From Psammoneis japonica (Eukaryota), in the NCBI GenBank assembly GCA_008632985.1, contig QPGO01000013.1, forward strand, positions 682,001 to 746,000: DNA of 64,000 nt, read 5' to 3'. Each line of letters opens with the position of its first letter. Positions within the stretch are counted from its first letter, which is position 1. The notes under the pieces are model-generated. The model worked only from the letters and a program-made list of their open reading frames with translations. It was not told where the DNA came from and made no database searches. The position numbers were made by a program, and so were the translations under genes. Shown here piece by piece: positions 7,464 to 60,240 of the stretch.

Positions 7464-7718
7464 TGACTGTACGACTTGAGGTAAATAGGCAAAATAAATA
7501 GGGCTAATAAAATACACAGTACAGTACACGGAATAAGAAAATAAAGAAGATAAGTAGGCCACGCACAGAATTTCAAAAAGCCGTCTGTCATCGGGGCCCA
7601 CATTCGAACACATATTATATAAAAATACATACATAACATGTATGTATAAGATGCAATCCAAGCATGCCATCGCATCATCATGCATCATGCATCATTCATC
7701 CATCATCCCTTGAAGCTC

Positions 7719-12815: not shown

Positions 12816-13127
12816 TGTTTTGACCTGAAGGTGACAAGGCAACCGTTGTCAACCGTTGTTTGACAAGTGCAAGGGTCCTGTTCACCTGAAATGAGTTTGA
12901 TTGGCTGGTTGATCTGCCAGACACAATGAAAGTGTCATCATCTTCAACTCACACTGTGTCCCACATGTGGCTGGCTCGGCACTGGAAAGTGAGACCATTG
13001 ATGAGGTCTTTGACATGTTGACAACATTGGTGCAACAATGAGAAGTCCACTCAAGGACCTTCTCACAATCTTGACAGTTTGCTGTTTTGTCAGTGAATTG
13101 TGCAGTTCTGTCGAGACACTTTTAGCA
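12816..13127 (+). repeat. 5' LTR
   Basis: tgttttgacctgaaggtgacaaggc...gacacttttagca; direct repeat of 19382-19698. Confidence 0.92.
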
Positions 13128-13142
13128 CTTTGTCAGAGCCGC
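13128..13142 (+). promoter_or_regulatory. Primer binding site (tRNA-Met-like, mutated)
   Basis: ctttgtcagagccgc directly follows the 5' LTR and resembles ..TATCAGAGCC with a TA->TG change. Confidence 0.6.
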
Positions 13143-13161
13143 ACCCCAACCAACTGAAACC

Positions 13162-14735: not shown

Positions 14736-14889
14736 CGTGCTGGTGCTCAGAAATGAAATGCAGGGACAGTGCTTTGTTCCCATGTCTCCTTGCTTGAGGG
14801 GAGAACATGCACCTTTTGTGCCATGGAATCGCAGTCACCAATTTCCAATCACTCTGCACTGCAATTCATTGCTCGTCATGTGATCTCCA

Positions 14890-19200: not shown

Positions 19201-19366
19201 AGGGAAGGTGGAGGGTTTTGTTTGGACTTCCCGCCAACGAAGTGTTTTTTTTTTGTTTGGAGATCCCCACTTGATGGATGTTTGTGTGAAGAAATTCACC
19301 ATCGCATGTTGTTGTGCATCCCAATGTCACCAATCTAGCTTGATGACCCGACCAAGTCCAGAGATT

Positions 19367-19381
19367 GAGGATTGAGGGGAG
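19367..19381 (+). promoter_or_regulatory. Polypurine tract
   Basis: gaggattgaggggag immediately precedes the 3' LTR. Confidence 0.8.
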
Positions 19382-19698
19382 TGTTTTGACCTGAAGGTGA
19401 CAAGGCGAACCATTGCCAACCGTTGTTTCACAAGTGCAAGGGCCTTTGTTCACCTGAAACAAGTTTGATTGGCTGGTTGATCTGCCAGACACAATGAAAG
19501 TGTCATCTTCAACTCACACCATGTCCTGCATAAAAATGTGGTTGGTTTGGTTCTCGAAAAGTGGTGAGACCATTTGATGAGGTCTTTGACGTTTTGAGGA
19601 CACAAGTGTGACATCGAGAAGTCCACTCAAGGACCTTCTCACAATCTTGACAGTTTGCTGTTTCATCAGTGATTTGTTCTGTCAAGACACTTTTGGCA
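19382..19698 (+). repeat. 3' LTR
   Basis: tgttttgacctgaaggtgacaaggc...gacacttttggca followed by the TSD ttttt. Confidence 0.92.
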
Positions 19699-20539
19699 TT
19701 TTTGTGTGCACTCACCTTTCGATTTTTGAAATGATCAAATTTGAAGGAGTTTTTGTGCTAAACTGCACTGAAAATTGGCTTTTTGCATGATGGATTGCGC
19801 ATCACCTGGAGCTGGAACAGGCCTTGGGTGACAAGGGGGAGACCACTTGGCAAGCTGTGCCAAGGTCTGTGAGCTGGAGCTGATGGCAGTTTGGCAGATA
19901 AAAACCAATGAGCACAATGTGTTGCCCTCTGCAGATGGTCTCCATCTGCATGCACACACACACTTTCTCTTTGCTGTTGAGAAGAAATGGGGCATCTTCT
20001 GCTGCTGCAACCTGGTGGCTCGTTGTGTGTTCCAACCACCCCAGGACGTGTTCCAGTCCCAGGTGACGCACAAAACGACAATCGGATTTTGAATATAATT
20101 TATGTATATTTGAGTGTATATAGCATTTTAATAAAAATACTTAGACGGATTGACTTTTATAGGCTTCTAGAGTATGTACATTTAAATAGTTTTTTGAGGG
20201 GTATTCAAATCTTCATGGGATATGTATCATAAACTTCCTCAGTAGACTCAATACTGATTGTACGTCAGTAGATTTATACTGAGATTTTTTTGTAGGTAGA
20301 AAACCTACCAAGTAGCATCGTAGAAAGATATATTTAGTTAACATCATAATAACGGCAATATTTTCGCCGAAAATCATCCGTTGTGTTACGAATCTTTTAA
20401 TGCAATGAAAAACATAGATAGCACAATAACAATGATATTGCAACACTCACACGAGTCTTGTTAGTGTTGCAAAACAATTTATATTTGTATAAATCTATAC
20501 TTTTGGTGGTGAAAGTTCGATCGTAAGTTGTTAGGGACC

Positions 20540-23500: not shown

Positions 23501-24240
23501 GTGCCAGGTTCAACTTCAGAATGACTCTGCCACCAACCTCTTTGACAAAGGAATGTGGGAACTGTTGCCACCATCATGCCACAATGAACAATGCCATGCT
23601 GAGGGTCACCTTCTCCTGATCATGTCAACTGCAAGTGCCCCCGCCCTTGGCTTGGCTTCACTCCAACGGGCACCATTTGCCATCCATGCCTTTGATTGCA
23701 TCATGCAGTGTGGTTGATTTGCTGTGCTTGGCTTCTCTTTGATTGTCAAGGGGGTGGGGTGGAGGGCAAGAAAAAGTTGACTGACACTCATGTTTTGCAG
23801 GCATCCATGCTTGGTGCTCTTTGCTGCACCTCTGCGTTCATTGGGCGCTGCTGAGTGAACAAGCTGGCTTGCAGACTGCAGCCAAACATTGGTTCAGTCA
23901 TGGGCCAGCTCTCTTTCAGCAGCTGGAGATTCTCAGATCTTTGTTGTTGAACATCATTCACACACATCTCTTTGCAACACTTTGAGTTGAGAATTGACGG
24001 GAGAGATTCTTTTGGACACTTCTGCGCTTTTTGGGCTCAGACAGGAACGGGCTTTCAGGACAAACACTTGTTGTGGTTCCCATCAGAATCCTGAACATTT
24101 GTCATCAGTTGTTGGGGTTCTGACAGATCATCTCGTTTTGCACTTGTTCTGATCCGCTTCTCCGAAACACTTGTCCGAGATCTTCTTGATTTTCGATGTG
24201 ATTCTGACATGGCACAGTGCACATGATGTACTGTGCCATA
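20540..24240. mobile_element. TpA-depleted degenerate repeat block, family unassigned
   Basis: TA nearly absent; Cys/His-rich, Tyr-free overlapping ORFs; hairpin at 24209-24239 near the right end. Confidence 0.55.
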
Positions 24241-34309: not shown

Positions 34310-34790
34310 GACCGGTAGCTAAGTAGGCCCTAGAGGGCTAGCAAGAAGTAGCTGTACTCTCTAGTCGTATGGTAGCTACCAGGTAGCTAGCTACTCGTAA
34401 GGTACTGGCTAGAGTAGAAGTAGCTTAGCTATGCAAGCTACTAGAGCTCTAGTAGTAGCTACTTCTCTAGTAGTAGCTACTACTCTCGACTACTCTCTAG
34501 AGCAGAGAGTACCGGAAGTAGCAGCTAGCTACAGTAGCTACTCTCTACTAGAGAGCTTAGCTACTACTCTAGCTAGCTAAAAGCTAGCTCATTCTACTCT
34601 CTAGAGAGTAGAGAGAGAGCTACTACTACTAGCTACTTCGTAGCTAGAGTAGAGAGTACCGGTAGAGCTACTAGCTAGCTAGAGTAGAGAGTAGAGAGAG
34701 TAGTAGAGACTCTAGGGTAGAGAGTAGCTACTACTACTACTAGCTAGAGTAGCTCTCTAGAGAGTAAAGCTACTCTAGCTAGGTCTAACT
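34310..34790. repeat. Low-complexity TAG/CTA/GAG tract (TpA-rich)
   Basis: About 480 bp built from tagc, ctac, tact, ctct and agag words, with many short palindromes (CTAG, TAGCTA). Confidence 0.85.
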
Positions 34791-34954
34791 ACCACGAAAT
34801 AGAGCACACCGTCTATGACTGATTGCGCTTTTCCTTTTCTCGCAGAAAAAGGGCAAGAGATTTTTGGCGAGCGGCTGCTCACTTTTTTCGAGAGCACCCT
34901 CGGGCCTTTACCGGTAGATAGTCGCAAAGACACTCATCACAATACTACTACACA

Positions 34955-35782: not shown

Positions 35783-36113
35783 TGATGTGGCGACAGAGCG
35801 CTCAACTGGAAATGGAACATTCTAGAGAGATACCCAGAAACTCTATTGCTATTTTTACTTTATCCCAAAGATTATGTCCTTTGCTTTGTGGCTCTAGCTA
35901 GCTAGTAGAGCTATTCATAGTAGGGCCCTAGAGCGAGAGAAGTTGTTGTCAATCTAGAGCTTCACAGCTCTCACCGTCCGTCGTCCGGACGCACGACCCG
36001 CAAAAGATGATCAGCGGCAAGACGGCGAAATCTGAAATTTGCGTTGCGTCGCTCCGCAATGACCGAAAGCCAATCTGAAAAGCCGTCGCAAAGCAAGTTA
36101 CACATCGACAACC

Positions 36114-39000: not shown

Positions 39001-39642
39001 TTATGCCGCTGACGGGAACATTTCATAGGTTTGTGGAGGCGTTTCCTCAACCTTACTCTTTTGGAGAGATCGTGGCGATTCATCAACAGCAACCTCTTGC
39101 TGCAAGTCTTGTTGCTGCTGTGTTTCGTCGACGACTCGAGCCGCATGCGCATCAGCGATACCCATCATTGTCGCAAATTTTTTGGCATCCCTCGAAAAGA
39201 CTCGGGAGATACGTGCAAGCTGCTCCACCATTTCATGGTTACGATTGCCTTGATTCAACACTTTTTGCGCGTGCAAGACAGCCTGAGTCGCTCGCTGCCG
39301 AGCTCGTTTTCTCTGAAAACAGTGCTTCCTGCTGCACAGGCGCTCTAAACCTCGAGCCGATACGGCAGCCTGACTACTCCATTCATTGAACGACCGCTGT
39401 TGTGTCACACTGTATGGTCCTTCAAAACGATCTGGTAAAAGAACGAACAAACCTCGTCTTTGGGCATCCAGTGAAGCCAAGTATGCTTCGTTTCGAAACA
39501 AATAATAGTCGCCGTCGCAATACCACAGGATGTTGGGTGTCGCATTATCTTCTTTCCATTCCTTGTCACTAGGTTTTCCTCTCTCAACGACAAGCTCTAG
39601 AAAGCGTACCTTTTTCTTTTTCGCCGCTAACTTTTGCGCCAT
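39001..39642 (-). CDS. Hypothetical protein (diatom-type, RGLE-containing)
   Basis: KKVRF..., RGLER, AVL.AQ, LARISR..S..A..FA..MG.ADA pattern of a common diatom hypothetical family (recognised from memory). Confidence 0.55.
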   Translation of the reverse strand: MAQKLAAKKKKVRFLELVVERGKPSDKEWKEDNATPNILWYCDGDYYLFRNEAYLASLDAQRRGLFVLLPDRFEGPYSVTQQRSFNEWSSQAAVSARGLERLCSRKHCFQRKRARQRATQAVLHAQKVLNQGNRNHEMVEQLARISRVFSRDAKKFATMMGIADAHAARVVDETQQQQDLQQEVAVDESPRSLQKSKVEETPPQTYEMFPSAA

Positions 39643-40432
39643 TTTTGACACCGCGGTCCGTCACATTGCCAACTTTGTAATAGCTCAAGAGCGAGGTTGC
39701 GAGAGAAAACAGAGATCGATGACCCGAAGACGAAGTCATAGTGTTAGGGCTATAGAAATGTCCTTCGAACGATGTCTTTGATAAACATCTTTGTTAAATG
39801 ATTGAGACATTTAACGATCTTATTTATGGGTCATTTAGTTTGAAGTCATCAATCTTATTTGATAAAGACTCCAAAACGAGAAGCTCAACAAGAGGGTGCA
39901 TCTCAACGTAAAGGAACTGGGAACAAGCACGGCGGACACCTTGGGCTCGGGCGTACCGGTAGGGCACTACAGTACCTGTAAAATGTTTGAGGGTTCACCA
40001 GACACAACATGGTTCATTATCGGGCACTTCTCAAGTGTGTTGAACTCTTGCTGTTTCTCCTCTCGAGCAACACCACAACGCATTCTTCTAGCATGCAATG
40101 CACTCAAACAGGACTAAAACAAATTCCAGTTTCATTCCGAGATGCAAGAGAAGCGTACGAAAAAGCTCATTGGTTTCTGTTTCGCTAGAGTGACTGTCTG
40201 CTACACTGAACTCCGAGGAAGAGGCCGTCGAGTTTCGAGGACCAAACCCCGCGCGAATTGGAGAATCCCACGCGCGATCGCGCAGCCATGAGCAAGCACG
40301 CGACGACGCGAATGTCGAATGTCCACCCCCAGGAACCATGAACCATGAGCAAAAACCTTGATATTACGCGCTGCGTCCAACTGCGTCGACAAAGTTCCAG
40401 GTTTGTTCTCTGTCAACACTATACGTACCACA

Positions 40433-40850
40433 ATGAAAGAAGTAAACGTAAAACAAGACACTGTTGACGAGCACGAGGACGACGATGCAGCAATTGATCT
40501 CGACGACGACGAAGAAATCGAAATCGAAGAAACAGCCCCCGAAGCAGCAGCAGAATGCATCAGAAGTACCTGCCGCTCAGCAGCCGCCAGACAAGAAGCA
40601 GCAAATGCGTGAACGCCTGCGTAAATTAAAAATGAAAATGAATCAGGCACGACACCTTAACCGCCAAGACGTTATGCGAGAAGGAGAATGGAGTCACGAC
40701 GACGGTAGCAAGGAATGCAAACGTCAGGCAATGATGGATAAGAAGAAGCGACAGGCTGAATGGGAAGCGCGAAACGGAAAAGCAATGCAAGTGGCGAACG
40801 AAGCCAATGTGGATGGAAAGTACTTAGTGGAGCAAGCTGCAGATAGCGTG
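40433..40850 (+). pseudogene. SYF2: Truncated duplicate of the SYF2 first exon
   Basis: Close copy of 50525-50926 plus part of the intron; homology stops near 40905 and exon 2 is missing. Confidence 0.75.
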
Positions 40851-41031
40851 GTACGTCTATATAAAGTGCAACTTGTGATTCTCTGTGTTCTTCAGTTTTT
40901 CTGAATTTATGTGTGAGCTGTAAACGGGCTATGATCTACCGGCTATTGACCGTTTAGCGGATCTATTCTTGCTTCACATGAGGGGACTCGTAGTTTCTTC
41001 ATCTTTCTCCCTTAACAGCTCGATTTCTAGT

Positions 41032-41714: not shown

Positions 41715-42200
41715 AGAATGGATGTGGCCAACTATTTCGTGCCGGAAGTCAAGATACAGTCGAGGATACAACTAGACTACGAGCTTCTGAGAATTCTAAA
41801 GTATGCACGATTCGAGAATTCTGAAGTATGCACGATTCGAGACAGGGGAACTCGACGATTACGAAGGATACTGTACGGCTACAACTGCAGAGTGCCGGTA
41901 GCTACTCTCTCTCTAGAGAGTACAGTAGTAGACTACCGGTACGAGCTTCTGAGAATTAAGAATGCACGATTCGAGACAGCGCAACTCGACCCCCAGAAGT
42001 CAAGGATCCAGTCAAGGATGCAACTACTACTAGACTACCAGCTTCTGAGAATTCTAAAGCATGCACGATTCAAGTCGAGGATGCAAGCGAGCTTCTGAGA
42101 ATCACGTTCTAGACGGGGATGTGCCCAGCTATTTCATGCCGTAAGTCAAGCTGAGAATTTTTTTAAGTACAGTATGCATGCACGATTCGAGATTCGAGTC
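41715..42200 (+). repeat. Irregular tandem repeat (gagcttctgagaatt..aagtatgcacgattcgag)
   Basis: Motif recurs at ~41780, 41815, 41943, 42040, 42090 and 42150. Confidence 0.8.
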
Positions 42201-42963: not shown

Positions 42964-43149
42964 ATTTCATGGTTTCTGAGGAATAAGTGCATCCAAACAA
43001 CGAGGCGTCAAGTTGATACGATAAGCACTGAATTACAAGTTTTCACAAAAACCGAAGTTGTATAATTCTCTCTACTACTCTAGCTCTCTACTCTAGAGTG
43101 GGCACGTTTCGGCACAAAGTGATGCATTCGACGGAGTCAAACAGCAACG

Positions 43150-46100
43150 AATTCGATCGAAGGTGTCGCGAAACGTACGCTAAACGAAGAATTAGACAGC
43201 TAAAAGGATCAAGACTGGGTCTGCCACATGGCACACCCACTCCGCTCTTCTCTCACAGCTGTGGATGACAAAGCACCTCAACTGCCACAAAATGACAACA
43301 AAAGCTGCAATGGCTGGTGCTGGCCCAGCAGGCCCAGCAGCCGCAGGCTCAACAGCAGCCGCAGCCTGCCCAGCAGCAACCAGCACAGCAGCCAGCTCAA
43401 CAGCCACTGTCCCACTGTTGTGGTGCCTCCACTCTCCAGCTGGGTCATGGCCCAGCCAGCAGAGCGCAGATGTCAAAGATTTGGTGAGCTTGCATCCTTG
43501 CAGATTTCAAGAAATGTTGATCTCATTGATGAACATGTTTGTGCTGAGCATGCAAACAAAAAATGGGCAAGCTCCATGTTGGAAACAGAGTGCAAAAGCA
43601 CAACATGACATTGTGCCATTTGAACATCTGGCAAATCCACTGAAATGCCATCCTCTGACTCCAACTCCACATCAGCGTCTGAATCAACACATTCTAAATC
43701 ACAACATTTTGCATTGACAAGGTGCTCTTTACTTCTTTGAGCCATTTTGTTGCAAGCTTCACAAAAAAAGAATTCACCAATGCCAGCTCATGTTGGTGTG
43801 GCCAATGTGTTTCCACTTCCCACACTGCAGCTTCTTGCTGTCTCTCAAAACTGCTGGAATCCTCTCATTGTGTCATCAGCACAGTGCCAAATTGCACCAC
43901 CAATGACTTCAACACCATCATTTCAAAATGAGAGCAAATGCATTGATCATTTTTCTTCAACTTGAAAAAACTTGACATGACAAATTCACCAGGTGGAAGA
44001 CCCAAATTAGATTAACAGTTGCAGCAGCTTCATCTCCAACAAGCACTTGCATTGCATGCACCAGACACACTGACTGCAAATGACTCCTCACAAGTTTTGT
44101 CCTTGGCTTCTTCTTTTGCATCATCAACCCACAATGTTGATCACTTGGAGGTTCCTGCCCCACTCAAAAAATTGTGTCTTGTGGCCAACAAATCCACTGT
44201 CTCATGAAACAAAGTGCAAACAATGGCACAAGGAAAAGGAAGCACAGGTTGCCATGCTCAATCAGCCATGCAATGTGCAGCCAGCAATGCCCTTGTGTGT
44301 GCTTTGTCAATCTTCATCAAATCTTTCCATTTCCAGTGATCAATTGCCAGGCTCAGCTTGGCATCGCAAGCAATGGAATCAGCCACATCTTCAAACCCCA
44401 GCAACTGCTTGCAGCAGAGGAAAACCCCTCATAGAAAGCACATTGCCTGTGCCAACCCAATCAACAAAGGACACAACCTGCAATGTTTGAAGGAGTTTTT
44501 AACATTTGGGCAGTTGGCAGTGGTGCCAACATCAGTGAAGCAACAGTGCAACACACTGTCAAACTCTTTTGCATCAGATGCTTTTGAAGCACAAATCATC
44601 AACAAGTGAGCACACTTGTCCTTGAGTTTTTTTAGTGACTTTTTGATTGTCTTGTCAAATGATTGCAAAAAAAGTTGGTGAGGTCTTGAAAAAAACCTTC
44701 TTGTTGGAAAGTTGACTGGCAGCACCCAGAACTGTTGCTGTGATGAGCTGAATGAAACATTTGCCATTTGCCATTTGTTGTCCCTTTGTGCTGTGTTTTG
44801 GCAATTTAACAATTGTGGACAACAGTTGATGAAGCCACAGATTGCAAGAGGAGTCTTTGTTTTGGTGAAACTCTTGCTCAGTGCAACACACAGTTGCACT
44901 CTTGGTGGAACAAAATTGTCACAACCAACCTCCCGATTGCAGGTTGAGATGTGTTGATGATGCCTTCTTCTTCCTCTGAAGACAGTGCAGCACCAGGCAC
45001 TCTTGCAACATTGCTGTGCCAGGCATCCCTGCAACTGTGGCTGTTGTTGATGGTTTGCAGCTAGAGCCACCAGATCGCAGTGCCATCTCTTGCTCTCTCC
45101 ACGGATGTTGTTGAAGAGGCACCAGATGAAGCCACTGCTTCTTAAGAAGACTTTCTTTTCCCTTTTTGTTGACAACAGCTAAAACCAATGCATCCACAGA
45201 CAACTTTGTGCAAACAGACAACAGCAGTTAAAGCCAGCAAATTTGCTGGATGCTTGTGCTTCACAATGAGCACACCCCAAAAGACTGCCAAATCTGGGTC
45301 CAAATGTTGCAACAGTCTGTTGGCAGAGTCTGTTGGCAGGAAATCTTGGCATCCTTTGTTGGCAGCTCTGCATTGTCAGTGACAAACACTTGGCAGGAAC
45401 AAAAAAGCAATCAACCAATGTTGTTGCAAATGCATGGAATCAAGCACAGAAATGGTGTTGGTCAATGACACGCATTTTTTTTTTTTGCTTGCACTTTCAC
45501 AAGAAGTGCATCCCAAAAAGGCTGCCGAGTGTGGGTCCAAACATGACAACAGTCCATCAACAGAAGATCAAGGCATGTTTTTGTTGGCAGCTTTGATTGG
45601 TCAGAGATGAGTGCAAGCAACAACAAAAATGCAATCAACTGATGTTTTTGTGTGCAAAGATGACACAGATGACACAGCAAATCACAGTCAACAATTTGGG
45701 TCAGCTGACAAACAAGAGTCAAACCATTTGTCAGTTCGTGACAAAAAGTTGGCAGAAAAGAGGACAAAACACAAGTGCAAGCAATGGTGGCAACAGTCAA
45801 GTTGCTGCAACAGCATGTTGCTGTTTTGTTGAGCATTCTGCTGTGGTGGTGTCATCGTCATCACATTTGCATGGGACGTGCAGCATCTGGCAATGAACAT
45901 GCACTTTTTTGTCAATTTGTTTGTTTGACCAAAACCATTTGGTTAAAGAAAGAACACAAAAGAGGTGCAAGCTCCAGAATCTGTTGCAGATTCAGCCAGT
46001 TGCACACCAGACAACTTCAATGAGCTGTTTGTGATTGAGCAACATTCCACACATTTGCAACTGAATGCCACAAAAAGCATTTGATGTGCTTTCATTAAAA

Positions 46101-49100
46101 ATGGCATTTAGAATGTTTGATGATGTTTGCAAGACATTTGCAAAAATCCTGCTCTCCTCAAGGAGGGCCAGTTGCTTGTTTTCAGCCAGATTTTCCAGGT
46201 CAGTTGCTTGGCAAAAAGTTTCCAACTCAACTGTGCTTTGCTGCACTTGCAGCACAATCACAAGAGTGACAGTCAATGAAAAGGTGAGTGACATGGTTGA
46301 CAAAGAAAGAGTGGGAAAACAACAGAGATCAATGAATCAAAGCCAAAGTCACATTGTCAGGGACACAGAAATGCCCTGCAATTGACATTTTTGAAAAATC
46401 TTGCCATCAAATGTGTGAGATGTTCACCCACAAAAAGGGCCACTTTGTTTGAATTCATCAATCTGATTTTCATTGTCACATCCTGTGAGCCACAAAGAAT
46501 TTGACAACATGAGCTTGGGCCAAAAGACTCCAAAGTGTGAGAAGCCAAACAAGATGGTGCCAATCAATGCAACAGAGTGCCGGCAAAATGTTTTGGAGCT
46601 CACCAAACACATGGATTGTTGTTGAGAACTTCTCAAAGTGACTGTGTTGAGCTCTTGCTGTCTCTCTCCTTGCAGCAGCTCTTCTTGAGCAACACCCACA
46701 GTGCACATTGCAGGCTTTGTCTTGTGTGCTTGTGGCTCAGAGCAGACCTGTGCATGGCACAGCAGAGAGCCAGGAGTGCAGCACAGTGGCTGATTCAACT
46801 GACATCCTGTGTTGTCCATGCTGCAAATGACACATTTTGGCCAAACATGCCATCAATGTGGCGCTCTCCCATCCCAAATGCCACCACTGTTTTTCCAACA
46901 ATTTCCAGCTGTTTTTCCTTTGAAAGCAAAGCACTGAACACTGCAGGGCATGGGGACACATGGATTCCACAAGAGAGAATCAATTGGAAGTGACACTTGA
47001 AGGCTCTGAGTTGGGCTGCAAGAAGTCATTTGCTGGCATGCATTTCATCCCACAAAAACATGCAATTTCAAGCTGTCAAGCAAGTGAGAAACAGTGTGTT
47101 CTGCCAGCGGCATCCTGTTGACACATGGCTGCACCACAGCAGCTTAACAGCTCTTCCCAGATGGACAATGGACCACAATGATGCATCTGATGGGGTGTTG
47201 CATTGTGTTGTTGTTGCAAACAAAAGATTGGCAGCAGTCCAATGTTCATGTGTGTCAATGATCAGGTGCAAAAAATTGTGAGATGTGGCATTTGATGCAC
47301 AAATCTGCTGGTTTGGAAGTGTGCATGCACTCAAATGGGACAAAATGTGCTCCAGTTTGTTTGGAGATTGTGCACGAGAAGGAAAAAGCTCACAAACAAG
47401 TTCATGGTTTTCTTTGTCTGGGCTGTTTTGACAGAACTCACCATGTGGCAGTGCTCATCTGCCACACTTTGAATTCCACCAAGAAGTGTTTGGCTTCAAC
47501 ATGGTGTGTGGGCCGGAACTTTGGCCACATTTTTCTTGAGCAGAACTTGGTGCATTTTCTGCACAAAAATGACCGAAGTCATCTCACCCACTTTGCCAGA
47601 GGATGGAAACTTGGAAACTCACATGACACAGTGTTCAGAAACCACTTGTTTAGAGTCCCCTTCACTTGTTTGTGGAGACTTGCTGCACATTTTTGGTCAC
47701 ATGTCATTTGCTGCAACTCTTGAAAACAGAGTGTCATGACTTGGGTGACTTCCTGATTTGGTGCAGTGTTTGTCATCAAAAACATCATAAAATGTTGATG
47801 TGCCATTTCATGTGCCATTGTGCAGAGTCAGCACCAGGTTCTGTGCAGCCAGAAACAGCATGGGCCATCATGCTGTTTGTGCAGACAACCATTGGATGGG
47901 CTAAAAAGCATGAGCAAACAATGTGTGAATCTGTGAACACTGCTCACTTGTCAGAACAAACAACTGTCAAGCCAGCGAGACACAGTGTGATCCACAAGCA
48001 CCTCATTGACACATGGCTGCAACACAGCAGCTTGACAGTTCTTCCCAGATGGATGATGGACCCCAACAATGCATCTGACTGGAGGTGTTTTGTCATGGTG
48101 TTGTTGCAGATGAAAGATCAGTGGCTGTCCAATCACTTGCATGTGTCAGCAATTGGGTGCAAAAGTTGCAAGTTGGCGTGGCATTCAATGTGCAAATCTG
48201 CTGGGGTCAGAAGTGCATGAGACAAGCTTGCAGCATGCAATGCACTCAAACAGAACAACAGTGCTCAAGCTTCATTTGGACATGCAAGAAAAGCCCACAA
48301 ACAAGTTCATGGTTGTTTTTGTCTCTTTTGCAGTGCCGCTCAAATGATTGTGTGGGTGCGCATGTGCACAAGACTTTTTTGCATGCACCCAAGCATGCAA
48401 TTTTCCACTTTGAGTTGGTGAAAATGGTGCTGCAAGTTGGGGCATGTGTTTCATGAAAAAAGGGGCATCATTTTGTGTGCACATGTTTGCAGTTGTCTGC
48501 CCAGAGCTTTTTGCCTCCACTTCTTCACCCCCCCCCCCCCCCCNCCTGCATCAGGGGACACTCTTGTGCCTCCATGTGCCTGCCATCATGTTGCATTGGC
48601 TGAGATCTCCAACCCCACAGCTTGTGTGTGACCACATGGGAATGTGATGTGTGGGGGTTGAAGAGCCAGCACAGACTTCCCAGTGGGATTGTCAGAGATT
48701 GTGGTGCTCCTCCACTTTCTTTGTGTGCTTGCACGTCAATGCCGCCAAACAGTGTGGACGCCACAGTCATTGTGGGCTGCATTGCAAAGTTGCCTGCAAG
48801 AGCAGATTGGCAATCAAACCACAATCTTGATGGCTCAAAATGCTCAGGCAAAAAAAAAACAGATCAAATTTTCAAGTGCTGTCACTCCTTTGTGAGCTGT
48901 GCTGGCACCGGCTGACCCACACTTGCAGCCAGCACACTGCATTGGTGTGACAGAAGGGGACAAGAACCATCACCGGACAGTGACGCCCTGCCAAAATGAC
49001 TGGTGATGGAGAGAGTGCCTCGAAGTTGCCTCTTTGATGCTGGCTTTGAGGTGCAGTTTGATCATGGCAATCCAGCTCACAGAGTCATCCAATGAATCTG

Positions 49101-50430
49101 CAAGAGAGCAGAGCCCTGTCCCTTGCAAGATGTTCTGGCATTTGTCAAAGATGGCAGCAAATTCAGCCTCGGTGCGTGGCATGCCATTGTGAAGATTTCA
49201 GTGTGTCCGCGTCATGTCCATGGACACTCTTGTCATGTTTTTCGCTCCCAAAGTTCCCACCACAAAAAATGCTCAGGCACAGACCTCTGCACCTTGTTTT
49301 GTGTTGCTGGATTGGCAAAGTGTCAAACTCATTTTCAGTGTGGCTGGTGTGGCCACCCTGCAGCAAGCACCTGCAGCGATGATTTGTTGATGCTGCCATC
49401 ATTCATCTGTTGGCTTTTCAAAGAGGCAGCTGATGACTCACAAGTGTGCATTGAAAGTGCAACTCCTGACAAGCCTGTGGTTGGCCATGGAAGTTTCACA
49501 CAACAAGATGAGCAAAATGATGCAACTGGCCATCGCACAAAAGACGCATCATGTGTGAAGGGTCTGTGCAGGATTCACACAGTGCTGAGTGTGGTCAACT
49601 GTTGCAAAGGGACCCAAGCTCCACAAGACTGCCATCATGCGCACATGCACTCTGCATGAAACAGTCTCATGATTTCCACAACACTTTGCTTGTTACACCC
49701 AAGTGCTCTTGGAAACCCCCCATTCTTCCTCTGCACAGAGGTCAATGACAGGCCTTTGCACACTGTGGCTGACATTGTGAGAAAAGATGCCAACCACCCC
49801 TTTTCCACTCCACTCACCTGGGATGTCACAAGACACCATGGTGCTCATGCTTTTGTGCAGGAGAAAAATTGCAGGCAGAAAATTACAAGCCATTTGTCCA
49901 AATTTGAGCCATGATGAAAACAAGAGGTTTGCAACCTGGAGGATGGATCGTCAGTTTGGTGGGTGGACATCTGCAAACACAATGCCTCTGAGCACCCCCC
50001 AAACACTTGTGATTGTGTCCAGCCCCTATCAGGGCTGTCAGACCTGCATGTGAACTGCACTTGTCAACCTTCAAATGCCAGCTGTCGACGCTCAAAAAAG
50101 AACAAACAACCAGTTTTTGCAAAGTCTTGCTGCTTGCTGCCTGTGGCAGACAATCCACAGTTTTCCAGGAAAGGCCAATGAATGGTGTTTGACTGGCTGT
50201 TGACATGCCTGCAGTTGCTGAGCTAGAGATCCCGAACCCTCACATGAATCCTGGTGGCATCCGATGTCATCTTCCATTGCCAGCACACATTTGGGCCAAC
50301 GCATCGCCCCTGTGCTGCTGTTCCTCGCTTTGTTTGCGCGCTGCCGCAGCGCACGATCCAGCCACACGACCAAACACGCGCGACAGTCTTCGCTCTCGCT
50401 CTCGCCGCTCTCGCTCTGCGGCGCTCGACT
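43150..50430. mobile_element. Large TpA/CpG-depleted degenerate repeat block, family unassigned
   Basis: About 7.3 kb with only occasional TA; internal ~330-bp direct repeat (47090-47420 and 47990-48330); sharp borders with normal DNA. Confidence 0.6.
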
Positions 50431-50524
50431 ATGCTGATGCTATCTGAGCAAATAAGGAACTAATAACACCGACGCTGTCGACAAACTTCCAGGTTAGTTC
50501 TCTAACAACATTGTACGTACCACA

Positions 50525-51412
50525 ATGAAAGAAGTAAACGTAAAACAAGACACTGTTGACGAGCACGAGGACGACGATGCAGCAATTGATCTCGACGACG
50601 ACGAAGAAGAAGAAATCGAAGAAGCAGCCCCCGAAGCAGAAGCAGAAGTACCCTCAGCAGCCGCACGACAAGAAGCAGCAAATGCGTGAACGGCTGCGTA
50701 AATTAAAAATGAAAATGAATCAGGCACGACAATTGAATCGTCAAGAAGTTATGCGAGAAGGAGAGCGGAGTCACGACGATGGTAGCAAGGAACGCAAGCG
50801 TCAGGCAATGTTGGATAAGAAGAAGCGACAGGCTGAATGGGAAGCGCGAAACGGAAAAGCCATGCAAGTGGCGACGAAGCCAACGTGGATGGAAAGTACT
50901 TAGTAGAACAAGCTGCAGATAGCGTGGTACGTCTACACAAAGTGCAACTTGTGATTCTCTGTTTTCTTCAGTTCTTCTGATAACCGTCATTCTATTCTAC
51001 CTCAACAGCGAACAGCCATGAAAAAGGCAGACAAGTCTGAAAAGGCACGTTACGGCATGAAAGACTATTACAATCCCGAAGGTCAATACCGTAATTATGA
51101 ACGAAACTTGAAAAGCTTACCGTCATCTTCAGCCGCAGCCGCAAGCAGTGACAGCACGTACAACCCTCTCAATCAGAATAGTAGTAGCAGTGGAGACAAG
51201 GACGAACGCAGGGGTGCCCATGTGCTGGCCTTGGAATTGAAGCGGCGCAGTGAAAAGGCATCTAAGAAGAGGCGCAGTCGAATGGAGTTTGAAGGAACAG
51301 ATGTGACATCCATTAACGAAAGAAACAAGCGCTTTAACCAAAGATTAGTCGCAACTTTGACAAGGATACAGCAGAAATTCGACAAAATTTGGAGCGGGGT
51401 ACGGCGCTCTGA
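50525..51412 (+). CDS. SYF2: Pre-mRNA splicing factor SYF2; intron ~50927-51008; apparent 1-bp indels near 50652, 50875 and 51340
   Basis: RLRKLKMKMNQARQLNRQEV, YRNYER, DVTSINERNKRFNQ.. and ..FDKDTAEIRQNLERGTAL* (the SYF2 C-terminal signature). Confidence 0.88.
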
Positions 51413-51619
51413 TGGGGACACACGAAATGCTACAGCGGGGGAATCGTGGTTGAAAACCTGGCGGAGGAAAAGAGAATGTTGAAGAATCTATTATTGATCC
51501 TGCAGGCTTTCTTGAATTTTCAGAAGCATGATTTGCATTCAAGTAGATAGGCCCTAGTTTTCGTTTCTTCAGTATTTTTGTTGTGCCTTGAGTAATGGTG
51601 TTCGCATCACCTTAAAGTC

Positions 51620-52445: not shown

Positions 52446-54962
52446 GTAGATTTCTTATATTCTGCCGCGTAGAGCGACAACACATTGTTGACGGGTATGT
52501 CTCCATCACCCTCGAGTGAATTACTCGTCAGTGAATACGGTCTGGACAGTCAATAGTCGTGGTGTTGTTGGCATTTCCATAATAGTCCAGCAAATCCAGC
52601 GCCAGACCATTGTTAAGGTGCCGACCCAGGACGACTTGATTGAGTACGTACGACGCCCACAGCAATGGAGTATCACGAGCAAAATCAACAAGATGACTTG
52701 AATCCGAAAAGACTGCAAGTTCTTTTTGATTATTTGGAATAGGGCTTGTTATGCAGTCATTCCAAGTCTCGACGATATGCAGTTGGCCAGAGGTAGGTTG
52801 AGAAAGCAAATCGAGAAAAAAGCGGAAATGCTTCCCGAAAAGTGAATACCGGGACATCAATACCCGACATGGTACACCACAAACCGATACGAGTCGATGG
52901 ATTGGAGGTATGATTAAAAACAGGTAAAAGTAGAAGTAGAAGCATGCGTCAGAGCAAAGCATACTTTGCTGCAATCAAATGCTTTTTCTGTGAAGCTCAA
53001 CAATCAACAGCACTCAACGTACCACGGTAAAGGTCCTTTTCACTTTCTTTGTCCGGAATACAATATCAATCGACAAAACAACACGCCAACGCATCCTGTC
53101 GACTACTGTGATCTGTGATGATCTCAATCCGGAGCTTTGTCATCGTCATGCTGAATGCCGTGCTTGTGGCATCATGGCATCATGGCTCATGGCCATCATG
53201 GCAGAGATCAGAGATATCAGTGTTGTGCTATCTGCTAATTCTGGAGCTCGGACCTCGTCACCGCGGCGGCAGTTTCTTTTCTACAGTACATACGGTACGG
53301 TTACACCGTACGTAAAGTTTACGCAGGAATAAGTAATAATTTTGACAGCACCAAGTTCCTACGAATGTTTTACATACGAAAACATGGTATTAGTTCTACA
53401 AAGATACACAAAAATGATAGTGATTGAGAAATTTAGCAACGGTCACGACACAAGAAATCTCTCGAAAGCGCTTCGTCTTCTCGCGCTCGTCGTTTTTTCG
53501 TTCACAACTCGACGTCTCGCACGATGTTGTTGTTTGCCAAGCAGGAATGCAGCGATCGCCGAGGATGGCTTACCCTTCCTCCGGAAAAATAGAAAGTCTT
53601 CTCTTGTTTGGCAGCTATACAACTCATTTGCTTGCACGAAGTGTTGTCTCTAGGTGGCGTAGGTGTTGCCAGTCAAGTCCGGAGGTCGGGGCAAATCGAA
53701 TGCGTGTCTCCGGCCTGGAGTCCATGTTATTCCTGTCCATCAGCTTTCCCGATTTTACCAACCAGCAAGTCCCGTTGACTGACCCTTCCACTCGGCAGCT
53801 GATGTGACGACCAACCCTTCGACGGAGCCCTCGGCACTTCCCTCTGCAATGCCAAGTGCAGCTCAAGTGACGTGCCATCAAAAGCACCATCAGCAGAACC
53901 AAGCGATGTTTGGAAGCACTTCGTGCTGTGACGATGAACGTGAACGATGTATCGTAAGATGTACAAGGAAAGAAAAATGGAATCAAACCAAAGATGCACT
54001 TCGATGGGATGCACCATTGCTAGGAGCCACTGGACCGATCCATTTCTTTCCTATCATTTTGCGACATCTGTTCTCGTAAGTTGTTTTCCGGCTGCACTTT
54101 TCCCACTCCATCCCCGTCACCTGAAGATATGTAAAAGCTCGAGCTCCATCTTCTGATGGCGCTTTTTAGGCAAATGTTGTCCTACGCGACCGATCTCTAT
54201 CAACTTTTGATATTGGCGTGTTTCAAATATTTGAAACACGCTTTGAACAAAACAATAGAATTAGAAATACTAAAAGTACAGCATAGCAATCTTTATTGGC
54301 GTGTTATGCATCCCGTACGTACGTCAATGGACGACGATGACGGTCGTAGCGCTTGCGATGTTGTTGCATACTTCTACTTTGATGTCATGGTTTCTGTTTT
54401 CGTACCACACTGCTCTTTTTCTATCAGGGGGGGGGGTCCACGGTGGGGTATTCGTTACGGTATTCCCCAAGGCTTGTCAAAGATGTGTGGACTATTTGGG
54501 TGCTGATCACCTGCATATTTTGTGGATTCGTTACGTTCACTTGTTGTTAGGGAGTTTCAAGTGTTCTGCCGAAATAGCGGAGCACTAGAGTAGAAGAACG
54601 CGGACGACAAGGCCTCTGGGGGTTTATCCGAGCCATCTCAATTCTAAAGTATGGTAGCTAGCTACAATGCCTCTAGAGAGAAACGAAAGATTCGAATTCC
54701 GTGAGTTTTTTATTTCTCTGACGGTACCAAGCTCCGTTTATCCTCTTTCTGAGGTGAATTTATAAGGAGTGACTACGACAGATGTACTTTTATACAGGTG
54801 TTGCTCGAAGACGGGGTTCGGATGAAATACGAAGCCCACCGAGTAAGACGACAAAGTGATGTTTATCTAGGGGGCAAGTTTAAGTACACTTTCCTGTAAA
54901 GGTAACGATTGGCTGCTGCGGTACAATGAATGCATTCCAACAAGGCTGTCGATTCCTGAGAA

Positions 54963-56965
54963 CTATGTCAACCGGAAGCTCTCTGGTCCGACATCATGCA
55001 AATAGAAGCGTTTGGCAATCAGCTGCAAGACACGTTTCTTTCGTGTACAGCCAGGTTGATCAGCACCGAGTTCGTATAGTGTCGAGAGGTTGCTTGCCAG
55101 TCCCTCTGTAAAAAAGTTTGTTGGGTCTTCTCGAATCAGCGATTCAATCATGCGGACTGCCTCATGCATACGACACGTGTACAAGGCGCAGAGAGCCATA
55201 TTGTTGCAAGCGTCCGTCATGATGCTTTGGTTTGAGTCTCTTCCAATTGCAAGGAGACCTCCCATCCAATCTTCTGGGCGATAGGAATTCTGTATAAATC
55301 GTTGGTTGGATCGAAGTTGATCGACAACACGGCTCAGTAAAGCCATACTCTTGTCATAGTCACCGTGAGCAAAGCACAGCAGCCCGTCATTGAGAAGAAT
55401 CTGTGCTTCAACGTCTCGATTGCCCACACACTCGTCAAATTTTCGACGGGTCTCGATCGAAACATTGAGAGAGTTCCATTCGGATCGACCTTGTTCAAAG
55501 AGCACAGAAGCTGCACCAAGGGCGCCGGCTTGCAACATGATGCGAGCCTGCCTTGACCAAACCTCGCACCGAAAGGACGCAAGCAAAATCGAGACAAGTT
55601 CGCTGTGTGCGATCCCGTCCTTGGATACAAGACAAGATGGAACAAGGAAGGATGGTTAAGATATGTTTGGCTCCTCTTTAAAACAGAAAGTTAACTGTGA
55701 ATACTCACTTGCGCAAATCTCGACTCAACCAAATATTTGGTTGCCTCGGGTAATGACTCCAGCACATCGTCCAAGGAGGAGAGTGCCAGCCGGTATTCAT
55801 CCATTCTCAAAAAAGCATTGGCCAAGGCATGATCAATGGATGCTAGCCATACCTCCTTGTCCGGTTCGTTCTTTTCGGTAATCACCCTTCTCATTGTGTT
55901 GAGCACATCGATACATCGTTTCGAGTTCGGGTCTGTATATTGCTGTATAGCAAGGCAGTAAAAGCTCATGTGAGACGCGAGTATCTACCATAGCATTATG
56001 AATGGCGAAACTAAAGTATGCTTACCAGAGTCTCGGCAGCTAGAATATCTAAAGAAAGACGTTTGCAAGAAAAACGACGAGAAACAACATTAGCTTGCGC
56101 CCGAGTAAGCCTTATGATTAAACAAGTACCTTCAATGAGACTTACGCAAACTCCATGGAACCCACAAGGGTGACACGGCTGCTGGATTGTTAAAGGACAC
56201 AAATTTCCACGTTTCGATCTCCTGTCCCAAATCACTGTATCGCCGTAGCTTATGCCACGCATGGCATTCTAGAGTCATGAGTTCCACCGTTTCTTGCTTT
56301 TGAATCAGCAAATCATTATTGGCCTCTTCGGCTGTGCCTTCCATTAGACTAGCATAAAGAGCCGCATGAGGCGAAGACGGGGTACGCAGCATGGCACTTG
56401 TAATTTGCAAAACATCGCCCCACGCACGTCTCTCCACCAAGGTTCTGAGTTTCTGCAAGCCATGTTGATTCTCAGGGAGTGGCGGTGGTCGGAATAGGGG
56501 AGATTGCTTTAAGTTTGATGTACGATAGGATGGACCCGATAAGAAGGAATCCGCCAATGCATCCAGCGAAGTGGTGGACGGTGGAGCCTTGAGCGGAGGA
56601 GGCGTAAGCGGTGGTGGAGGTGTGTGCACCGAGGCGGTTGTATCCCGAGGAGGAGTTGTAGGAAGAGCTGCACCGGAACTCGCTGAAGCTGAAGCTGAAG
56701 CGACCGTAGGGACGACCGCAGTGGCTCTGCTTGGCAATGGATCCTCCACTTGCGGCGGAACCTCCAACGGATGCGTTGCTGCGGCAGTTGTTGTACTAGT
56801 GTTGCCGGAGGTTGGAGGGGTCACTCGAGTCAACCCCACCGGCGCGGCTGGACGAATACCGGCTCCATGAACAGCAGACGGCTGTACAGTCACAAGAGGA
56901 GTAGATTGCCCAAGCCCAGTTGATGGAGCACTGTTCTCTTCTTGATCGGTCATGGGGGATGCCAT
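54963..56965 (-). CDS. TRAPPC12: Trafficking protein particle complex subunit 12 (TPR); multi-exon
   Basis: LRTLVERRAWGDV, WVPWSL, RIMLQAG, NNMALCALYTCRMHEAVRMIESLIREDP, NLSTLYEL; gtaag donors at 56145 and 56025. Confidence 0.82.
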
Positions 56966-57139
56966 TGTGAGCGGCAGCATGCTACTGTAGCATGGTGGAG
57001 CAGTTGTCGATGTCGAAAGGAGAATAAGTGCGAATTTGAGCTGAATTTGTGCAAATCGCTGTTTCGTTATTTTGTGCTTTTTTGCGCTTTTCTTTTCTTT
57101 TTTTCGGATGACCATCGTCCGCATCGTAGTCATGGCGGC

Positions 57140-60100
57140 TAACATGTGTGCCGAGTGAACGTCCTAAACTGCATCACAAACAGTGCAATGTAGGAGATGG
57201 AAAGAAAGCTGTGGTTGGGAGAAATGCGAAAGCCGCTCTTTTGTCCCTTCAGTTTTCACCCTTTCCAAGGCGGCTTGCAAGAGAGTGGGAGAAAGGCACG
57301 TGTGCGAGAGAACAAATCCACTCGCTCTGAGCATGGGGCGTGCATCATTGGCCACAATGGCACCTGATTCCAAGCTCAAGCATTGAGGGTCAACAGAGCA
57401 TTGTTGCTCTGGTGGTCATCAAGGGAGGCACCAACATTGGAGACAATCGTGCCCGCAGCTGAAGGAAAGGCGCTGGTGGCTCTCAATCAGCTCACATGGA
57501 CGCTTCATCCAAATTGGGAGGATGTCAAATAGAATCATCTTGAGGGCCGCATGTCCATCACCACAGCATTGTCAAACAACATCAGGAGTGCTTGGAGTCA
57601 GCTGGAAAAATTCCAACCTTCAGGATGTGCTGGATGGAAGACAGTCAACTTCATCCCATCAAGTGGTGCTCGCATGCAAAGTGGTGGGTCATCTGCAGGA
57701 TCATTGCCACTTGTGAAGCCCCAATTTCCATCATCCTTGACAAAACACCACAGAGGATGCATGCACACACCACAAGCAGAGGCTTGTTGGGTTGCAGCAG
57801 TGTGCCATGCACGGATTCCTTGAGGAGAGATGTCGTCACAAGTGAGAGGATCACGAAGAAATGACTTGGCATTCCAATCGGTGCAATGGACAAAGAGAGA
57901 ACCATCAGCAAGCATGAGACATTCTGCGCCATCTTCACAACAAAGATTTCCAGACTTGCAGGGCATTGGTGATTTCCCTGACACTGTTTTCCCTGCTTCC
58001 TTGTGTTGATGGTGAGCCAGTGCATCCATGCAAAGTCCTTTTGGATTGAAGTTGCATGTGGCACTGGCTGCAGTTGAGGCAGAAGCCACAGCAGCAGTGG
58101 TCATGGCAGAAGGTGCAGAAGATGGTGCAGGAGCAGCAGTCTTTTTCAGTGCATCAGCCATGGCCTGCTCATGCTCTTTTGGACCGGGCAAATGAGTGGC
58201 CAAGGCCTTGGCAAGATCTTCAGGGGTGGCACTTGTGGCAGCAGCCAGTGGAGGTGCAGAACTTGAGGCATGAGATGACTTTGGACAGGGGGCATCAGGA
58301 ACAAAGAAGAGACAGATGGATGCAACATGCATCATGAGAGTGTCCTGACCATCCGAGATTGCCTTGATCATGGCCTTCTGAAGGTTGGTGTGGTTCAGAT
58401 GAACCGGAGAACCTTGAGGAGGAGCCACAAAAAGAGGAGCCTTGTCAATGATTGTTCCAATCCATGCAAGATCTTTGGTCAGTGCAGCTTGGGGGGTGAC
58501 AAGGTCCTGAACAATCTTGTGATGGAGAGTTGTGACAGCGTCACTCTTGAGGCCTTGGGGAGCAAATCCAGCATCCAGAAGATCTTCAGGAGCAGGGATC
58601 TTATCCAAACAAAGGGCATTCAGGTGAACATGGGCATCAGGCAAGAGGTGATGCAGCTTGAATTTGACCAGCATTGACATGATCTTGGTCAAATTGATGG
58701 CGTTTGTGTTCTTGTTGACCATGGTTGTGTGGGAAAAAATTAAATTCCTGCACAGAGCTCTGGCATGTGTTCTGTGGTGGTCGTTTGATCACAAATCGAG
58801 AGGTGAAAAACAGCTGTGACAATGACGATGATTTCAATGGAGGAAAGTCACCAAACCACACAATGGCCATTGCAGCACGGCTGCATGGAGGAAGACAAAC
58901 AGTGCACTGTTGCTCATGACCTCACAGACTGCTGGCATCGGGATGATCTAACGGATGTCTGGACAGATGAGACAATCGTGTGCCAGATGAGTGAGAAAGA
59001 AAGCAAGCAAAAGAGAGATTGTCAGATCTCTCCATGCTGTCTGTGGCAGTCTGTCTGACACAAGAGAGTGCACTCCCCATCTCCGATGTCTGTCACTGCA
59101 TGAGATGTTGAGTCTTGAGCTGCTGCTCTCCTCCTGACTGAGGCTCAGTGCCACACACGGAGCACAAGAGCGAAGCTGCTGATGACCCAGAAGCTTGCCA
59201 CTCTGTCATTGATTGTCTCTCAAACTTGAAGAGAAGGGAGCACTGCTTTCCCCATTGCTTTAGCCACTGCTGGGTGTGAGACTTTTGCCGAGGGGGGCAC
59301 ACAAACACAAACCTCACATGAGTGGCTTGACAAAGAGCACATGCAGCACACAACAGCTGGAAAGCTCTTTTGTCTCTCAGTCAAAAAGACAACCACTTCT
59401 GAGATGGTTCTTGGAACAACCACTTCATCTGCTCATTGGGCTGGGATTTGAAAAACATCAAAAATCTTTCCTGGAAAGTTCCAGCATGATGTTCTGATGG
59501 GTGTCAGAGTCAACAGCCACTTTGGAAAGTGGCGGGGCTGGCTGCCCCCTTCTTCTTGCTCATTTCTCTCTTGCTGCTCTTTCGCCTCACCAGTCTCATC
59601 TTTTTGCCCCTTGTTTTCATCCCCAACGGTGGCTCCCGAGGTTGCATCATCTTCAGCACCATTTCCCTTTCAACCCCCCTGTCAAATTCCTCAACAACAG
59701 ACTCGCTGTTGGGGGTCTCCTCCGCCACCTTCCATTTTGTGCTCCAGCACACCCCTGCAATGGCTCAGGTCATTGGCTGGGGTGTTGTGATCCATGTTCA
59801 CAATCTGGTCTCAAAACTCAATGACAACAATCCTTGCAGTGGCTTGGTGAGGTGACTGGCTGGGGCAACAAGAAGAAGCATCGCTGGTGTGGTTGGAGAC
59901 ACAGCACCCGCGGCTGTCAAGTTGTGGCACCGTTCAAAGTGAGGTTGGTTCTTGCAAAGAAATGTCACACGATCTGACCATGGGACAGTGCTTTCATTGC
60001 CTTGTTGCAGCACCATTCTCACTGAGCTGGGGCCAAATTGGAGAATCGGATCAATCAATCAATCACACACTACCGGTACAGCAACAACGGACAGACAGAC

Positions 60101-60240
60101 AAAATGATTTCAGCACGCACGAACAACACGTCATCATGGATCGGAAGAGAGGCGCAGCGCAGGCAGGTAGGTGGTGCTTTCGTTCGCCATGTTCGACATT
60201 CGATGAGAATCGGTGACAAGGCAGAGGCAAAGATTCTGTT
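57140..60240 (-). mobile_element. TpA-depleted block with a probable LTR-retrotransposon gag-like ORF remnant (57598-58722)
   Basis: Tyr-free 374-aa ORF; IRAWH...QQASACGVCMHPLWCF...WGFTSG.D.DD resembles diatom Copia gag once His/Cys are back-converted to Tyr (from memory, unverified). Confidence 0.5.

Follow-up and report, generated by a model that had tools for sequence, protein, structure and literature searches.

The genome of the diatom Psammoneis japonica contains domains from which the dinucleotide TpA has almost vanished, and five of them lie in the stretch of DNA analysed here, referred to as the window (64,000 nt; assembly GCA_008632985.1, 91.4 Mb; contig QPGO01000013.1, positions 682,001 to 746,000 of the forward strand). 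These blocks are mostly nests of transposons in which TpA was changed to TpG or CpA by transitions after insertion, equally on both strands. Our reading, to which we assign a probability of about 80%, is that two transition processes would act in the same silenced and mostly transposon-derived domains, a fast one at TpA (TA in the following) and a slow one at CpG (CG), both of which would yield TG or CA. The fast process would act on genomic DNA once an element has inserted, replacing the A:T pair of TA by G:C on either strand; it would favour TAY over TAR and would halt once a site has been hit, and the slow process would be the decay of CG to TG or CA. With a rate about 10 to 20 times that of the slow process, the fast one would leave lightly hit copies free of TA and rich in CG, and old cores without both. 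Direction, strand symmetry, post-insertion timing, sequence context, rate order and the nesting of the two losses are direct observations in this genome.

Segmentation of the window on the occurrence of TA gave the five blocks (1-1451, 11593-20093, 20533-24228, 43202-50429 and 57192-60070), in agreement with the first-pass annotation of this DNA. The observed/expected (o/e) ratio of TA is 0.03-0.07 inside the blocks and 0.54-0.63 across the four long intervening stretches. Blocks 2 and 3 are a single block, interrupted by a young, TA-intact miniature inverted-repeat transposable element (MITE) at 20045-20603. Block 1, which keeps CG (TA o/e 0.07, CG o/e 0.65), has its start outside the window, about 1.3 kb further upstream, and block 5 is a high-copy repeat in its left part. 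Pooled o/e ratios inside and outside the blocks are 0.04 vs 0.62 for TA, 0.26 vs 0.98 for CG and 1.80 vs 1.15 for CA/TG, while the G+C content barely shifts (0.47-0.52 in the blocks, 0.46-0.49 between them). At 23 boundaries from a wider sample of 304 kb, TA o/e falls from 0.66 to 0.05 at once. The focal block 43202-50429 does not begin at 43080 as annotated, since 43080-43201 holds 6 TA where 4.8 are expected. The block cores had been described as lacking both dinucleotides, but in CG they are poor (o/e 0.09-0.41) rather than free. Among the four places said to keep CG without TA, 1-1440 (6 TA vs 51.7 expected, CG o/e 0.64) and 22270-22620 (1 TA vs 11.2 expected, CG o/e 0.96) are strong cases. 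The other two are marginal when taken alone: 50260-50425 has 63% G+C and 0 TA vs 3.4 expected (P 0.035; 5 of 232 host windows of the same size have at most one), and 60080-60230, which is rich in CG and lies upstream of an M16 peptidase gene, outside the segmented block, has 1 TA vs 4.7 expected (P 0.051; 10 of 255 host windows). When 23 edges are pooled, the rim that keeps CG stands up to a chimera control. All host genes of the window with Pfam matches lie in TA-normal DNA, and no Pfam family was found in any tested frame within the blocks. The closest named matches of the M16 peptidase gene are from diatoms, araphid pennates first (67% and 62%).

Direction and timing can be followed in the family of the young MITE, which is 559 bp long and has terminal inverted repeats and a 4-bp target duplication. 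Two genome searches and a fetch gave 69 loci, from which 62 distinct full-length copies remained after seven same-place repeats had been dropped. The copies are the best matches to one intact and one eroded query, with both extremes over-sampled, and changes were scored against the column-majority state. Among the 3,279 TA sites of the 62 copies, 688 are now TG, 711 CA and 20 CG (1,419 transitions), and 85 carry other changes; transitions occurred at 153 of 1,524 CG sites and changes at 665 of 24,574 other sites. Both strands are affected alike (688 TG vs 711 CA, p 0.56), and neither strand bias nor runs were detected within copies (chi2 p 0.84; z -0.6). The TA load, i.e. the share of TA sites lost per copy, ranges from 0 to 96%. 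Most hits were acquired after insertion, because the 4-bp target duplications are identical in 54 of the 62 copies and the agreement in outcome between pairs of copies is low (0.557 of 17,956 shared sites). G+C rises with erosion from 0.346 to 0.447; the MITE ends are natively TA-free and CG-rich.

The change is narrowly bound to its context. A>G amounts to 0.386 per A in TA in the 34 copies of high load, vs 0.018-0.030 in AA, CA and GA; there is a small excess outside TA (AA: 0.030 in high-load vs 0.011 in low-load copies). The hit rate depends on the base 3' of the A (C 0.49, T 0.46, A 0.24, G 0.30). Correspondingly, 151 of 251 surviving TA in the cores stand in YTAR, compared to 1,365 of 7,456 in host DNA, and only 11 of 251 in RTAY, compared to 2,238 of 7,456; TTAA is the most resistant 4-mer. 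At two CGTAR sites of the MITE the TG outcome is seen in 0 of 34 copies and the CA outcome in 9 and 19, and a 5' CpG may block hits on that strand in the CGTA context. CGTAGA is enriched among survivors in CG-rich eroded DNA, in part through the same MITE copies.

CG is lost as well, only more slowly. C>T in CG reaches 0.089 in the high-load copies vs 0.010-0.015 in other contexts, which is the excess of CG>TG/CA in repeats that would be expected of CpG decay of the 5-methylcytosine (5mC) type, and in the low-load copies CG is not hypermutable (0.008 vs 0.014-0.017 for other C). In bins of TA load 0.49, 0.72, 0.86 and 0.93, CG loss is 0.034, 0.091, 0.30 and 0.195, and the corresponding TA/CG hazard ratios are 19.5, 13.3, 5.5 and 12.3. 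Three copies (L055, L078, L076) have lost 26, 28 and 38 of 53 TA with no CG transition at all. The other repeats give the same order. The internal CG island is a less-decayed 415-bp copy, at 22174-22588, of a dispersed, probably LTR-like (long terminal repeat) repeat; in it 21 of 24 TA-type sites are changed and 26 of 31 CG kept. Across the 20 copies of its family, 103 of 480 TA-type sites remain and 558 of 620 CG-type sites (ratio 15). In the end of a dispersed repeat in block 1 (1-146), 3 of 27 TA-type sites are left and 18 of 24 CG-type sites, and 15 copies of this repeat give a ratio of 10; in both families the TA-type sites are inferred from column patterns. Five copies compared to one shared reference, the near-intact 1.8-kb copy L173, have lost 325 of 386 TA and 34 of 332 CG (ratio 17). 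The faster TA rate proposed earlier is thus borne out, and a TA loss about 5 to 20 times faster than CG loss is supported in four repeat families. In L173 itself 13 of the 18 TA-type sites nearest to an old block are changed and none of the next six, while CG is kept at 31 of 31 sites, which suggests spread from the old block; L177 shows the opposite, a spared patch amid eroded surroundings.

The two losses are nested. For the comparison, contiguous DNA totalling 304 kb was divided into 607 windows of 500 bp; it comprises 104 kb around the window and 200 kb of contig C1, picked blind, and 31% of the C1 part is TA-poor. All 120 windows with CG o/e below 0.3 have TA below 0.15, and 22 of the 179 TA-poor windows have CG above 0.6. 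Likewise, each of the 16 CG-poor segments overlaps a TA-poor one, while 10 of the 23 TA-poor segments have no CG-poor part. This nesting indicates that the losses differ in rate and share their targets. Across the MITE copies TA and CG loads correlate (Spearman 0.82), i.e. the processes are switched on in the same copies. The earlier claim that they are separable is therefore correct in so far as at least half of the TA is gone from some copies in which no CG was lost, but the correlation and the 16 overlaps show that they are not independent.

A wider footprint of the TA process had also been proposed, and it is real but small. Over 300 bp across 23 TA boundaries CG o/e runs 1.08, 0.79, 0.58 and 0.41, whereas chimeras with a common boundary for both losses give 0.54, 0.38 and 0.33; the first two real values inside were reached by 0 and 1 of 200 chimeras. 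Because the chimeras also show a rim, part of it is boundary overshoot. Further in, the real CG o/e still lies above the chimeras (0.40 vs 0.30), which shows that decay is in general less advanced at the block margins than in the deep cores. Of 26 edges, 21 have the CG boundary on the inner side of the TA boundary (four outside, one tie; four segments without a CG-poor part omitted), with a median offset of 114 bp vs 10 bp in the chimeras (p 0.009), i.e. about 100 bp beyond the control. A taper shared by both processes, combined with their rate ratio, would explain the CG-keeping edge.

The core of the focal block (43202-50232) has a TA o/e of 0.045 and a CG o/e of 0.11. Sequence comparison revealed eroded pieces at 45891-48325 (reverse strand) that are homologous to an intact gene region at 39.3-40.2 kb; of the 19 TA and 18 CG of the intact copy none is kept, and 13 of each are now TG or CA. 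The TA-normal homologue at 39004-40200 (reverse strand) is an unclassified gene with a 219-aa frame that has no Pfam family above the cut-off. It has four further matches in the genome at 33-35% identity, and the three profiled ones are TA-normal; the gene may belong to the host or be a passenger of a transposon. The block also contains an internal duplication (47055-48393, forward strand; copies 47055-47483 and 47953-48393) and a dispersed 250-bp repeat (49982-50236), whose copy in the window retains hardly any TA-type sites and a minority of the CG-type ones. The right edge 50233-50429 keeps CG (62% G+C, 0 TA, CG o/e 1.25) and, from its place directly upstream of a SYF2-like host gene (50477-51482, forward strand; TA and CG normal), is probably the promoter region of that gene. 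A DNA search with the entire block returned short dispersed repeats only.

Contigs of one public run match the block DNA with 0-1 differences over 1,049-1,679 bp; the run possibly stems from the source sample, so that this tests the assembly only, and as these contigs mix repeat copies, their variants are uninformative on ongoing mutation. Their depth is 35-40 at 46011-47689 and 48528-49576 vs 52-62 for unique flanks, and the block may differ between two haplotypes. One run labelled as DNA contains GT..AG joints and has almost no cover over 42984-50287 or 56928-58900; this lack of cover was not used as evidence. The 5' part of the SYF2-like gene is duplicated at 40385-40904, which is a truncated copy of it. 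A single duplication event comprising the focal block and this duplicate was considered and dropped as unproven (mismatches outside TA and CG 84/377 vs 30/397).

Protein conservation polarises the change as well. The decayed element at 12816-19702 (forward strand) has both hallmarks of a Ty1/copia-type retrotransposon, an LTR pair (12816-13131 and 19382-19702, 83% alike) and an RVT_2-type reverse transcriptase. Alignment with homologues shows that its reverse-transcriptase frame (17397-18839, forward strand, 481 aa) is without tyrosine; it reaches 54% identity to PF07727 proteins and itself no longer matches Pfam. Every homologue among 120 listed of 459 has 15-27 tyrosines in the aligned part, and all 17 conserved tyrosine columns are His (12) or Cys (5) in the frame. 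Of 30 copia loci of the genome 28 have a TA o/e of at most 0.31, many with a CG o/e of 0.6-0.9. Among the best 150 of 6,738 public reverse-transcriptase representatives the median tyrosine content is 4.2% and six have less than 1%, and in the nine lowest the conserved tyrosine columns are mostly His or Cys. The representatives low in tyrosine are from contigs of Logan, JGI/IMG and ENA, show 45-63% identity to the nearest genome loci compared, and may belong to other diatoms or to the same species. Tyrosine-free or nearly tyrosine-free fragments are P0287, P0294, P0361, P0316, P0382 and P0368. One distant locus was obtained when metagenomes were scanned with the tyrosine-free frame. Block 5 contains a further tyrosine-free open reading frame of 396 aa (57601-58788, reverse strand), and an atlas search with the frame 57601-58725 gave no usable match.

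As to mechanism, the CG decay would reflect 5mC, and both processes would be guided by silenced chromatin, with an intensity tapering over 100-200 bp at the edges. A per-locus switch rather than a clock is suggested. Private transversions do not rise with TA load (47 of 13,469 sites in the 34 high-load vs 55 of 11,105 in the 28 low-load copies; rho 0.09, p 0.51), and the copies L075 and L029 differ at three other sites, yet L075 has lost 66% of its TA. Hits cluster only weakly along the sequence of the 19 copies hit in part (p 0.009 at lag 1, no significance at four other lags). As regards the earlier suggestion that TA o/e may map heterochromatin, more than 90% of TA is kept by 28 of the 62 copies, nearly all of them in TA-poor flanks; TA o/e is therefore a record of past editing that misses young or unswitched repeats. 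As chemistry we tentatively regard as the best candidate, at slightly less than even odds, a TadA/ADAT2-type adenine deaminase, which would turn dA into inosine that is read as G at replication. The genome contains an ADAT2-like gene (L125), a TadA-like gene and two ADAT1/ADAR-type loci, as well as 27 matches to the methyltransferase family PF00145, and no single candidate stands out among the deaminases and methyltransferases. At L124:313-1785 (reverse strand) a zinc deaminase domain is joined to a 2OG-Fe(II) oxygenase; nucleotide metabolism would be a more likely role for this protein than DNA editing. Four C5-methyltransferase-like frames (L134, L135, L136, L140) lie in TA-erased DNA (TA o/e 0.07-0.11, CG 0.66-0.74) and are related to the TA-normal L130; possibly they are repeat-borne or amplified copies hit by the TA process.

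Several points weigh against this picture. All private substitutions (rho 0.41) and the total divergence at other sites (rho 0.42) rise with TA load, so age has some part in it; assembly errors may inflate the private changes in some low-load copies. The gap between low- and high-load copies is partly due to sampling, because the copies are best matches to two queries. A targeting of transposons only is too narrow, as a possible copy of a host gene lies in the focal block. Regarding the enzyme, TACG, the natural context of TadA, is not the fastest site in the MITE (10/34 and 12/34 survive at two sites), and the motif of the mutated pair (TAY, or RTA on the other strand) fits chemistry on A or on T equally. 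ADAT2 is a housekeeping gene, for which reason its presence is weak evidence. No fusion of a deaminase with a chromatin reader was found among nine PF00383 and four PF02137 matches, within those frames that were scanned.

An unlikely, though not negligible, alternative is error-prone repair, in which T:G mismatches from 5mC deamination recruit a Y-family polymerase that places G opposite T at TA; TA would then disappear as a side effect of CpG methylation. Polymerase eta is known to put G opposite T at WA in antibody genes. The correlated loads, the fact that CG-poor DNA is always TA-poor and the mild rise of A>G in AA of high-load copies fit such a mechanism, but it does not account for the three copies that lost up to 38 of 53 TA without a CG transition. 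TA is moreover hit about 13-fold over AA even before correction for saturation, TA transversions are not raised, and strand runs are lacking. A somewhat less probable possibility is that the T of TA is modified by TET/JBP-type oxidation or a deviant methyltransferase, or the A is methylated, and that the modified pair then converts. The spectrum would be identical whichever base is touched, and the 27 PF00145 matches and the deaminase-oxygenase fusion could supply enzymes for it; on the other side a Tet_JBP search of the genome was blank, with control searches equally silent, and we know of no such T-modifier in algae.

It is quite improbable that the two losses differ in footprint only, with similar rates and the CG-keeping parts lying outside the methylated zone. 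With 0.79 and 0.58, the CG o/e of the outermost 100 and 200 bp within the 23 boundaries exceeds that of chimeras (0.54 and 0.38), and 10 of 23 TA-poor segments lack any CG-poor part; both would agree with that, but TA and CG sites are interleaved along whole copies and TA loss is still 5- to 20-fold ahead. RNA-level editing or reverse-transcription errors fixed at insertion could be considered for the retroelements among the targets, but are refuted by the strand symmetry within single copies: the non-coding, DNA-type MITE is equally affected with TG and CA equal and interleaved in each copy, outcomes agree at only 0.557 of shared sites, and tyrosine became both His and Cys. A compositional effect, selection against TA or an assembly artefact may account for the short GC-rich edges 50260-50425 and 60080-60230, which are matched by chance in 5/232 and 10/255 host windows, and the MITE ends, too, are natively TA-free and CG-rich; for the cores and the two large islands it is refuted by the direction polarised through intact copies and protein conservation and by the near-identical public-run contigs.

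The closest known counterpart to the two-process reading is the TpA>TpG/CpA hypermutation of integrated viral DNA in Bigelowiella natans (Mettrop et al., bioRxiv 10.64898/2026.01.13.699255). It is described there as an about 1000-fold increased rate per generation, seen in some lines only and targeting integrated giant-virus or virophage DNA; CpG, diatoms and trinucleotides are not mentioned in the main text. For the rate and its restriction to some lines, the only analogue here is the load per MITE copy, from 0 to 96% and unrelated to private transversions. Common to both are A:T>G:C changes confined to TpA that lead to TpG or CpA on both strands, and an action that is local, in the diatom mostly on repeated DNA, and not on everywhere at once; its authors propose ADAT2 as the enzyme, a type also favoured here. 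Bigelowiella is, however, a rhizarian, and according to the same text the evidence comes from two viral regions and mutation-accumulation lines, with a modest long-term depletion (rho 0.45). The diatom process concerns transposons and possibly a gene copy, is near saturation over 31% of the blind 200 kb, lies atop CpG decay and prefers TAY. Changes almost solely at TpA and of the A:T>G:C type are found here too, with the 1,419 transitions against 85 other changes. Confinement to repeats is seen in so far as four blocks hold dispersed repeats and the host genes are normal, while the focal block has the homologue of a possible host gene.

Repeat-induced point mutation (RIP) of ascomycetes changes C to T, mostly at CpA, thereby creates TpA and lowers G+C, and depends on a RID/DNMT4-type enzyme in the sexual stage. 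Both are heritable, strand-symmetric transition hypermutations that kill repeats and can leak into neighbours. Unlike RIP, the diatom process destroys TpA and raises G+C (in the MITE as given above), and C>T in CA is not raised (0.011 in high-load vs 0.014 in low-load copies). Three local duplications of host-like DNA are present in the window: 40385-40904/50477-50980 (about 90%), 51631-52448/56118-56984 (88%) and 1766-4607/24612-27717 (66-75%). The first two (520 and 870 bp, 88-90%) are TA-normal without one-sided loss, so homology alone is not the trigger; selection on duplicated genes could mask a one-sided TA loss.

Diatom transposons are reported as isolated CG-methylated islands that depend on DNMT5, in an otherwise unmethylated genome (PMC9998398); such methylation would yield the slow CG>TG/CA component, not the TA loss. 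Like the process here, TadA/ADAT2 and the engineered adenine base editors change A to G, with a 5' U or T and a 3' C in the natural substrate U-A-C-G (PMC10586758), whereas natural TadA acts on tRNA and the present process on both strands of genomic DNA, with TACG not the best site. The term TpA is absent from the available text of PMC12344493 and bioRxiv 10.1101/2025.10.24.684338, and a full-text literature search, whose scope left out most subscription papers, found no diatom report of TpA hypermutation.

Some further features of the window were noted. Low-complexity, TA-rich CTAG/TAG tracts occur in intergenic DNA (34350-34800, 35890-35935, 41770-42070, 43070-43100 and 1454-1480); two of the five directly abut block edges, and CTAG belongs to the contexts that best withstand the TA process. 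The sequence 52944-54935 is a high-copy repeat with normal TA and CG and a summed contig depth of 625-2011 vs about 55 for unique DNA, and is probably a young or active element. At 5018-7465 lies a TA-normal element with terminal inverted repeats of about 120 bp and internal repeats of about 105 bp.

The TpA erasure in this diatom is a variant of the recently described Bigelowiella-type process, which in the literature searched was not previously reported for diatoms. It is a genome defence from A:T to G:C, opposite in direction to RIP and APOBEC, with two viral regions in one alga as its one precedent. About a third of the sampled DNA has been rewritten, and rate order, context and edge behaviour can be read from the sequences of repeat families alone. 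For the enzyme a TAY preference, action on both strands and the absence of processive runs are predicted. Repeats obtain a two-step clock, TA first and CG later, and annotation has to be handled with caution, because the loss of TAA and TAG stops produces long tyrosine-free pseudo-frames and repeat ages based on identity are inflated. It is conceivable, although we consider it rather doubtful, that the diatoms of this lineage, and perhaps SAR (stramenopiles, alveolates, Rhizaria) algae widely, carry a natural adenine base editor of genomic DNA that would be activated locus by locus, read a silencing mark preceding CpG decay, spread over about a nucleosome length and be able to erase trapped host gene copies. 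If so, a natural DNA adenine deaminase would be of interest to the base-editing field, and the tyrosine-free copia fragments with their His/Cys pattern in several public sequence sources would be the trace of this editor in other samples.

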